Positions 24,130-25,993 are shown, counted from the first letter of the stretch. The stretch: DNA of 64,000 bases from a virus (IMGVR_UViG_2706795722_000001:12965-76964), one strand, 5' to 3'. Program-made: numbers and translations. Notes: a model not told the origin generated them from the sequence alone.

Positions 24130-25326
24130 CTACTTCATCTTCTTAACGATCTTGGGCTTCGGTTCGGATATGGTTTCCTTCACCGACGAACGAAGCAGGG
24201 ACTTCTGAGACGGCGAAAGGGCCGCACCCTTGAGGAGCTTTTCGACCTCCGCGTTTGTGACCTTGTCCATCTGCGCAAAGATGGCGTCACCCACGATCTC
24301 TCGAACCTTGGCCGGTTCGTAAGACTTGCGTCGGGACGACTTGAACTCGACGCTGTAGTCCTCGGTGTCGTACTCGACTTCGTCCTGGTCCATCGCGTCC
24401 TTGAGCATTTCTTCGACGATCTCGTCGATGGCGTACTTGATTGCCTTCGCTGCGCCGTCCAGTTCGAGGAAGCGCTTAGCCATCTCGTTGCGGTCGCCCT
24501 GAATCGCCATGATGCCGCCAGCATCGACGTTCTTGGTTACCAGAGGACAGGTGGACTTAGCTACACAGAACTGGCACTCCGAGTTTAGGGTGCGCCTGCC
24601 GGGGTCAGGCTCGGCGATGATACGCTCGGCAACTCGCCGAACATACTTCCAGGTCTCGATGTTGTCGTCGCGAGTGAGGCGAACCTCTGCCGTATCGTAA
24701 CGCAGCTGATCGAAGCAGACCCAGATCTCGTCGGGCTTGAGCTCCTCGCCAAGCTCGGCAGCGAGCTCCTTGAATGCAAGCTGAATTGCCATGCCGTACA
24801 GACGAGCCTGCGGCTTCTCGCGCAGCGCAGTAGACGTGAGAACCTGTCGCCAGGTCTTGTAGTCCACGACGCGGATGATAACCTTACCATCTTCCTCGAA
24901 GCGATCGAGGCGGTCGAAGATGAAGGTGTACGGAACATCGCCGATGGAAGTCTTGATGGGAACGCGGACCTTCTTCTCCACCATGAGCACCTCGACGTTC
25001 TCGAGGTTGGTGCGCTCGAACCACCGCTCGAGCATGTCGAGTCCGTCGGCGTACCAGGTGTTCTTGACGTCCGGAACTGTCTGGAACTGCTTCATGAACT
25101 CTTGCTTGAAGTACGCGACGATCCTGGTCCACTCGAGTTCGCAGACCTTATCGACGTACGACTCGGTGACCACCCGCTCGAGCGTATCGTGCACCGCAGA
25201 CCCAAGCTTGGCGGGGTTACTACTGCCGCCAGGTGTGGGCGTGCGCTGCACGTTCTCGAGAAAGAATCGGTGCGTGCAACCCTCGAACGTCTGGAGGGAT
25301 GACGCGGAAATCGTCGTAAGCTTCAT
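24130..25326 (-). CDS. Cas4/AddB-like PD-(D/E)xK exonuclease with Fe-S cysteines (398 aa)
   Basis: N-terminal Cys (GCTHRF), FDRLD...VVDYKT nuclease motif, CQFCVAKSTC cluster motif. Confidence 0.85.
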   Translation of the reverse strand: MKLTTISASSLQTFEGCTHRFFLENVQRTPTPGGSSNPAKLGSAVHDTLERVVTESYVDKVCELEWTRIVAYFKQEFMKQFQTVPDVKNTWYADGLDMLERWFERTNLENVEVLMVEKKVRVPIKTSIGDVPYTFIFDRLDRFEEDGKVIIRVVDYKTWRQVLTSTALREKPQARLYGMAIQLAFKELAAELGEELKPDEIWVCFDQLRYDTAEVRLTRDDNIETWKYVRRVAERIIAEPDPGRRTLNSECQFCVAKSTCPLVTKNVDAGGIMAIQGDRNEMAKRFLELDGAAKAIKYAIDEIVEEMLKDAMDQDEVEYDTEDYSVEFKSSRRKSYEPAKVREIVGDAIFAQMDKVTNAEVEKLLKGAALSPSQKSLLRSSVKETISEPKPKIVKKMK

Positions 25327-25560
25327 TTTTTCTTTGGCCCCCTTGGAGTCGATTTGCCGCCCCAGATTCCATCGGTCGAGCTGGTGCGTTCCCTGTAGTC
25401 AGCACACTGCTTTGCAACAGGACACTGCATACATATCTTCTTTGCTTCATTGGCGCGGTGCGACTGACCCCGGCCAGGAAAGAAAGCGTCTGGGTCGTGA
25501 TACCCTACACAGAGGGCTTTGCGGGTCCACTCTTCGGGCTCGATGTGGAAGGTTGCATGG
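25323..25560 (-). CDS. whiB: WhiB-family Fe-S transcription factor; 5' end unresolved (no ATG/GTG/TTG in frame before the first Cys)
   Basis: Manual translation gives EEWTRKALCVGYHDPDAFFPGRGQSHRANEAKKICMQCPVAKQCADYRERTSSTDGIWGGKSTPRGPKKK*: four Cys plus GIWGG. The stop overlaps the nuclease ATG. Confidence 0.85.
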
Positions 25561-25927
25561 GAGCCGATGGCGCCTGAGGCTTGTTCTCCTTCGCCGCAGG
25601 TGCATTCGTCTCCGACGTCTTGAGTGTTTCGTCCGTCTGCACCTGATCGAACAGCGAGGGCTCGGCAGATGCCTGTGCACCTAAAGGGGCGCGGCCACCG
25701 CGCGCCTCCAGCTCGAAGGCGGTCTGCGGCTCGCCGGTACCGAAGAGCTCGTCGGCGTCAGACTTAGCATCTGCCTCAGCGCGCTGCTCGGAGCTGAACG
25801 CGGTCTGCTGCATGTGCTGCTGGAATGCGGTCTGCTCGGGGGCGATGGGGCGAAAGTCGGTGTAGTTCACCTCGCCTACACTCTTGATCGGATTGAGCTC
25901 GTACGGTCCTGCGGGCTTATTCGCCAT
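25505..25927 (-). CDS. Low-complexity protein with three QTAF repeats (140 aa); possible N-terminal partner of WhiB by frameshift
   Basis: AGGAG RBS, GC3-biased codons, in-frame C CCT TTA at 25688-25682. Confidence 0.75.
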   Translation of the reverse strand: MANKPAGPYELNPIKSVGEVNYTDFRPIAPEQTAFQQHMQQTAFSSEQRAEADAKSDADELFGTGEPQTAFELEARGGRAPLGAQASAEPSLFDQVQTDETLKTSETNAPAAKENKPQAPSAPMQPSTSSPKSGPAKPSV

Positions 25928-25993
25928 CTTTATGCTCCTACGGTTGTGGTTGTGCTACCGTGTGATAGGTTATCACGGTTTGTGTGTTTCGTG

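Follow-up and report, generated by a model that had tools for sequence, protein, structure and literature searches.

A start-less WhiB reading frame in actinobacteriophages and a candidate programmed -1 frameshift at C_CCU_UUA

The subject of this analysis is a locus within a 64,000-nt stretch of viral DNA (IMGVR_UViG_2706795722_000001:12965-76964; below, the window), which forms part of a genome of 76,964 bp with a base composition of 59% G+C. All the features of the locus lie on the minus strand, and coordinates are those of the whole window. A gene encoding a protein of 140 aa, which we term ORF A (ORF, open reading frame), overlaps a complete coding sequence for a regulator of the WhiB family, and this in turn is followed by the gene for a Cas4-family exonuclease. 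The WhiB sequence has no start codon of its own. It lies in the -1 frame relative to ORF A, and ORF A contains the heptamer C_CCT_TTA in the phase of a slippery sequence. From the comparison of related phages we consider it highly probable that the WhiB frame is expressed by a programmed -1 ribosomal frameshift at C_CCU_UUA.

The WhiB frame and ORF A

The WhiB domain matches the Pfam family Whib (PF02467) with 57.3 bits against a cut-off of 23.6, corresponding to an E value of 2.3e-15. The four cysteines and the GIWGG turn are present, and the TGA that ends the frame (25325-25323) overlaps the ATG of the exonuclease gene (25326-25324) as ATGA, so that the complete domain with an overlapping stop, which had been described from this DNA alone (the sequence-only reading), is borne out. 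Relatives have the same overlap of stop and start, either as ATGA or as TAGTG. Alignments with WhiB, WhiB1, WhiB3, WhiB4 and WhiB7 of the PDB all begin just ahead of the first cysteine (WhiB 8dy7_H at 6e-12), and AlphaFold2 (AF2) models the WhiB part, residues 50-113 of the -1 polypeptide, with a predicted local distance difference test (pLDDT) score above 90. The cluster ligands are C60, C86, C89 and C95 of this 121-aa polypeptide (C-Xn-C-X2-C-X5-C), and they are invariant across 74 aligned WhiB sequences; the turn reads GIWAG in one relative. From membership of the family we would expect the WhiB part to act as other WhiB proteins do through the principal sigma factor of the host, binding a [4Fe-4S] cluster and region 4 of that sigma factor.

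The unusual aspect is the way in which the frame begins. It is open from 25757, directly after a TGA, and in its entire length the sole ATG, GTG, TTG or CTG is an ATG at 25430 that lies past two of the four WhiB cysteines. The coordinates of the closing TGA and the lack of any start ahead of the first cysteine were as first read, as was the exact -1 relation to the 140-aa ORF with its in-frame C CCT TTA at 25688-25682. WhiB genes of more distant phages have ordinary starts, placed 15-25 residues ahead of the first cysteine. In GenBank and RefSeq records of the relatives, either nothing is annotated between ORF A and the exonuclease, or a 33-aa 'WhiB family transcription factor' that begins at the internal ATG.

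Between the heptamer and the WhiB domain the -1 frame encodes a second cysteine-containing region that we call the Cys4 segment. Directly after the heptamer it reads P-F-R-C-x-G-[IV]-C, with C-x-C-G-E-G later on, and the first invariant cysteine comes 3 codons past CCC and another 7 codons past. All four cysteines are invariant in all lineages, and they are kept through changes between TGC and TGT that alter the 0-frame protein (Ala to Val). A HMMER search over 1.8 billion representatives found no homologues of the segment outside the phage group, and the AF2 model of it has low confidence.

The 0-frame protein has a conserved N-terminal part (aa 1-94) with three T-A-F (TAF) motifs, and a variable tail rich in Pro, Ser and Lys that is predicted to be disordered. 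In the alignment of relatives its wobble periodicity runs up to the heptamer. Past that point the 0 frame is conserved for about 12 further codons (P-L-G-A-x-x-S-x-x-P-S-L-F-D) before the variable tail begins. By hidden Markov model ORF A belongs to PHROG 6890 (3e-58), and no match was found in Pfam, NCBIfam or Atlas. The AF2 model has a pLDDT of 60, with one long helix and disorder, and is of low confidence. Homologues are labeled 'endonuclease' in PHROG and RefSeq; there is no recognizable nuclease domain in ORF A, and the label looks unfounded. We also observe in the 0-frame tail, just past the putative shift site (25640-25657, minus strand), a conserved motif [EQ]-P-S-L-F-D that is absent from the GMA7 group, and which we take to resemble the pentapeptide that binds sliding clamps. 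The features of the locus are collected in Table 1.

Table 1. Positions of the features of the ORF A/WhiB locus in the window
Feature	Position	Strand	Basis or remark
Shine-Dalgarno sequence AGGAG	25935..25939	-	7 nt ahead of the ORF A ATG; direct sequence reading
ORF A, 0-frame product of 140 aa	25505..25927	-	ORF list; stop TAG 25507-25505
TGA closing the -1 frame upstream of the putative shift site in this genome	25758..25760	-	Sequence reading
Candidate slippery heptamer C_CCT_TTA	25682..25688	-	0-frame Pro81-Leu82; -1 frame CCC TTT
-1-frame Cys4 segment (C-x3-C ... C-x-C-G-E-G)	25596..25679	-	Shares its DNA with 0-frame codons 84-112
WhiB domain (GIWGG and four Fe-S ligand Cys), then a short basic tail	25350..25529	-	Pfam PF02467
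Entire open -1 frame, 144 codons and stop	25323..25757	-	No usable start; post-shift translation would run from 25682 on
Cas4-family PD-(D/E)XK exonuclease gene	24130..25326	-	Pfam PDDEXK_1, 3.5e-22

Conservation of the heptamer and selection in two frames

The closest phages are Tsukamurella TIN3 and TIN4, which are ~85% identical to the window, and there is ~67% identity to some 76 Gordonia phage records (Montyvirus, Woesvirus and Getseptimavirus, together cluster CS). We read the locus base by base in 17 phage records and three Logan assemblies (two Logan lineages) that were found through a search with ORF A. These provide 19 relatives with 16 unique sequences, and they span Tinduovirus, Getseptimavirus, Woesvirus, Montyvirus and a new metagenomic lineage, with identity in the region falling to ~67%. 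The new lineage, previously unsampled, is represented by L066 (1501-2108) and L067 (Logan SRR25400130, SRR33452761), whose ORF A is 65% identical and whose gene order of methylase, ORF A/WhiB and exonuclease is that of the phage group. The third assembly (L068; Logan SRR27947036, 1501-2105) is 96% identical, and in it the internal ATG has become ATC, leaving a -1 ORF without a single ATG, GTG, TTG or CTG. In every relative read the WhiB frame keeps its -1 relation to ORF A and has no start ahead of the first cysteine, and CCCTTTA occurs once and in the same phase. The invariance of the heptamer and the start-less frame, for which the sequence-only reading had looked to related phages, are therefore both found there.

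Within the 76,964-bp genome C_CCT_TTA in the X_XXY_YYZ phase of ORF A is the single occurrence of this heptamer on either strand, and in the 19 relatives it is invariant and in phase. A shift could occur only within the zone bounded upstream by the last -1-frame stop and downstream by the ORF A stop. In the relatives the equivalent -1-frame stop is 6 to 33 codons ahead of the heptamer, so that the upstream limit comes as close to CCC as 6 codons in L066 and 8 codons in Monty; across the family the downstream limit falls 157-184 nt past CCC. CCCTTTA is the only canonical X_XXY_YYZ heptamer within the permitted zone that is common to all the sequences. The first C stands at the wobble position of GCC, CGC or CTC, so the amino acid there varies (Ala, Arg or Leu) while the base never does. 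Invariant 0-frame wobble columns amount to 8/16 between -21 and +24 compared with 10/79 upstream (p=0.002). In the alignment, the putative shift site is conserved beyond the need of the 0-frame protein.

The heptamer ends in TTA, which is the rarest leucine codon of this genome (25/18,189 codons, or ~1.6% of Leu codons; the ORF set used for this count was crude and contained some spurious ORFs). The view that TTA is rare in a high-GC genome holds for the rarity, and the G+C content is only moderately high.

We then have the evidence of selection. Single-base differences among the 16 unique sequences were classed by their effect in each frame, and a run with 14 sequences gave the same picture. 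Expressed as the ratio of changes synonymous in the 0 frame only to those synonymous in the -1 frame only, the value is 144:10 upstream of the heptamer and 8:7 from +13 to +56 (Fisher p=1e-4 relative to upstream). It is 16:20 from +57 to the PEEW motif, 1:12 from PEEW to the stop of ORF A, and 5:90 beyond that stop. From the stop of ORF A to the internal ATG, 37 changes are synonymous in the -1 frame and 2 are non-synonymous. Every indel in the alignment of 650 columns has a length divisible by three. On these counts, the -1 frame comes under purifying selection directly past the heptamer, and the pattern is that expected when translation from the heptamer onward uses both frames.

Taken together, and with the exception of a demonstrable stimulator, the locus has the sequence characteristics of a programmed -1 frameshift site. 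The presence in the same genome of an A_AAA_AAG -1 frameshift site in the tail chaperone gene is counted as support.

A proposed route to two proteins, and the alternatives

In the proposed mechanism ribosomes would initiate at the ATG of ORF A (25927), for which the preceding AGGAG is the sole ribosome entry point for both products. At C_CCU_UUA (25688-25682) a fraction of ribosomes would slip back by one base and proceed in the -1 frame. This would generate two products with residues 1-81 in common: the 140-aa 0-frame protein, with its variable and probably disordered tail, and a fusion of ~201 aa. The predicted fusion comprises residues 1-81 of ORF A, a Leu or Phe, and 119 residues of the -1 frame, that is, the Cys4 segment followed by the complete WhiB [4Fe-4S] domain. 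It would be the sole route by which the phage makes its WhiB. A fusion of WhiB to about the first 82 aa of the upstream protein had been suggested before; the comparison of relatives supports the fusion. The shared part is more exactly 81 residues, plus the Leu or Phe.

The slip is likely to be ribosomal, and it might take place by either of two routes. In tandem slippage both tRNA-Pro (CCU to CCC) and tRNA-Leu (UUA to UUU) would re-pair, giving the junction Pro-Leu-Arg. Alternatively, tRNA-Pro in the P site would slip while the rare UUA awaits its tRNA, giving Pro-Phe-Arg.

Searches for a homologue in which ORF A and WhiB are joined in a single frame found none. The -1 polypeptide gave no hit in a word-indexed search, and with HMMER, run against 1.8 billion representatives, the WhiB domain alone was matched (query aa ~44-118). 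A search with ORF A found ORF A-sized proteins only, and scans of IMG/VR, metagenomes and genomes gave no members beyond the known phages. It is therefore the comparative evidence that carries the predicted fusion.

Four points weigh against a frameshift at the heptamer. First, no conserved stem-loop or pseudoknot was found 3' of it, either using RNAalifold with 10 sequences or in single folds of 4 sequences. RNAalifold gave -3.7 kcal/mol downstream of the heptamer with no covariation, and the z-scores of single sequences ranged from +0.9 to -1.6. Second, the U_UUA tetramer is only weakly shifty in E. coli (PMC4066793). Third, the conservation of CCT TTA could partly reflect double coding, with Pro-Leu in the 0 frame and Phe-Arg in the -1 frame; a constraint of that kind presupposes, however, that the -1 frame is translated at this point. 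Fourth, the base-by-base reading covered 19 of the 80-odd related genomes.

Two local elements were found near the heptamer. A hairpin 9 nt past it is present in the window (25639-25672, minus strand) and in GMA7 (L005:1262-1295), with two compensatory pairs between them, and is missing from the Monty and Woes groups. A GGNGG element (GGTGG, GGGGG or GGAGG; window 25689-25704, minus strand) lies 5-6 nt upstream of the heptamer in all lineages. It specifies Gly-Gly, and pairing with the anti-Shine-Dalgarno sequence is a further possibility.

It is important to consider other ways by which the WhiB frame might be reached. One is recoding at some place other than CCCTTTA, by a shift at a non-canonical site further downstream in the overlap, or by RNA polymerase slippage that adds one base. 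This has in its favor that no stimulatory structure was found at the heptamer, and that phages of the Monty group carry a G6 run 11 nt upstream of it. However, transcriptional slippage there was rejected on the ground that the run is not conserved: the window reads GGTGGC at this place, and several phages read GGGGGC. Nor is there an A or T run in the zone that would be long enough. A site further downstream is difficult to reconcile with the -1-frame cysteine codons 3 and 7 codons past CCC, which are already under selection, and no other canonical heptamer is common to all. We regard such recoding as improbable.

We give as little credence to a stand-alone WhiB that is initiated at a non-canonical codon within the -1 frame, whether or not it includes the Cys4 segment. 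An ATC start had been offered as an alternative, and the window does have ATC codons in this frame, one of them in G-I-C 6 codons past CCC. That codon is GTC in the GMA7 group, however, and the other ATC codons are not conserved either, so the suggestion finds no backing among the relatives. No Shine-Dalgarno sequence precedes any ATC of the -1 frame, and if the G-I-C codon were used the invariant cysteine before it would fall outside the product. Moreover, indels in multiples of three hold the frame in its relation to ORF A, which would be needless for a free-standing gene.

It might also be thought that the frame is a decaying remnant, or that the annotated 33-aa peptide, begun at the internal ATG (25430), is all that the phages make, since the deposited records of relatives contain this peptide or nothing at all. 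This we find very improbable. No stop has arisen in any lineage, a 33-aa product would hold just two of the four cluster-ligand cysteines, and the internal ATG is ATC in the 96%-identical L068. Given the 37:2 ratio of changes in the -1 frame upstream of that ATG, the functional unit cannot be the 33-aa product. Lastly, a sequencing or assembly error, in which one missing base near the ATG at 25558 would restore a normal start or a single frame, has nothing to recommend it beyond the oddity of the arrangement, and can be dismissed because the same frame relation recurs in independently sequenced genomes (Australia, USA) and three Logan assemblies, and that ATG is absent in TIN3.

If the frameshift at C_CCU_UUA is accepted, it could conceivably act as a switch that senses tRNA. 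UUA is read solely by tRNA-Leu(UAA), which would be scarce in the host and would set the share of ribosomes that slip. Slipping would rise when this tRNA became limiting, and the physiology of the host would then set the ratio of ORF A to ORF A-Cys4-WhiB with no need of an RNA structure. We regard this as doubtful, and offer it tentatively. The counterpart of the host tRNA-Leu(UAA) in Streptomyces is bldA. No tRNA-Leu(UAA) gene is present in the phage genome. The sole tRNA gene of the phage is that of tRNA-Asn(GTT) (G000:C1:12390-12463), located just upstream of the window and immediately ahead of the tail chaperone gene.

Comparison with known systems and significance

The closest system in its logic is that of IS3/IS911 OrfA/OrfAB, where there is likewise a -1 slip at X_XXY_YYZ in a small upstream ORF, yielding a short protein and a fusion with a common N-terminus, and adding a second functional domain that has no start of its own. 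In the transposase frameshift of that family the heptamer is A_AAA_AAG, aided by a Shine-Dalgarno sequence and downstream structure (reviewed in PMC5009743). Here by contrast the heptamer is C_CCU_UUA, no stimulator was detected, and what would be added is a WhiB regulator rather than a transposase.

The G/GT tail chaperone genes of tailed phages also use a conserved programmed -1 frameshift, and no other frameshift is annotated as a matter of routine in the genomes of these phages. It differs in its heptamer and its setting, the present gene being a regulator within an early block of DNA-metabolism genes. An identification of the locus as a tail assembly chaperone G/GT was rejected, as the site is between the genes of a DNA methylase and a Cas4-like exonuclease and not between those of the major tail protein and the tape measure. 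The ordinary G/GT site of this genome is A_AAA_AAG at 113-119 of the window (plus strand; region 100-131), with a -1 frame open to ~394, and provides an internal positive control; GGAGGAGGAG ends 6 nt upstream of this heptamer.

In E. coli dnaX a -1 frameshift similarly occurs in a non-structural gene and gives two products (tau and gamma) in a set ratio. There, however, the shifted product is shortened, whereas here it would be lengthened by a whole domain.

Two eukaryotic viruses provide the nearest parallels at the level of the heptamer. The shift site of Giardia lamblia virus is the identical C_CCU_UUA (PMC8230311). HIV-1 gag-pol uses U_UUU_UUA, with the same A-site codon UUA; there the rare tRNA-Leu(UAA) controls both the efficiency and whether the junction residue is Leu or Phe, and the P-site route has been documented (PMC6547452). 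Both of these involve eukaryotic ribosomes and downstream structures, while the ribosomes here would be actinobacterial.

Stand-alone WhiB proteins such as WhiBTM4 are likewise encoded among early genes of actinobacteriophages, and share the Pfam domain, the four cysteines and GIWGG (survey, PMC8612146). They have their own ATG or GTG start. Here there is none, and in addition a predicted foreign N-terminus of 81 residues and the Cys4 segment. The survey of >800 phage whiB loci mentions no frameshifts; Tsukamurella phages were excluded from it for lack of data (PMC8612146). The announcement of the Hotorobo, Woes and Monty genomes does not mention a WhiB made by frameshifting, and general literature searches found no published report of a frameshift-made WhiB fusion.

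If the frameshift at C_CCU_UUA is real, actinobacteriophages would possess a conserved programmed frameshift besides that of the tail chaperone genes, and to our knowledge no earlier frameshift builds a regulator of the WhiB family. It would correct the annotation of ~80 deposited genomes, in which the gene is absent or is represented by a 33-aa fragment that is unable to bind an Fe-S cluster. The comparison also defines a putative new WhiB architecture, comprising a phage-specific N-terminus of 81 residues, the Cys4 segment and WhiB. Finally, a natural and apparently structure-free X_XXU_UUA candidate on actinobacterial ribosomes would make the role of rare-codon decoding in -1 frameshifting directly testable, with Gordonia or Mycobacterium smegmatis as the host, and should be of clear interest to those who study recoding and phages.

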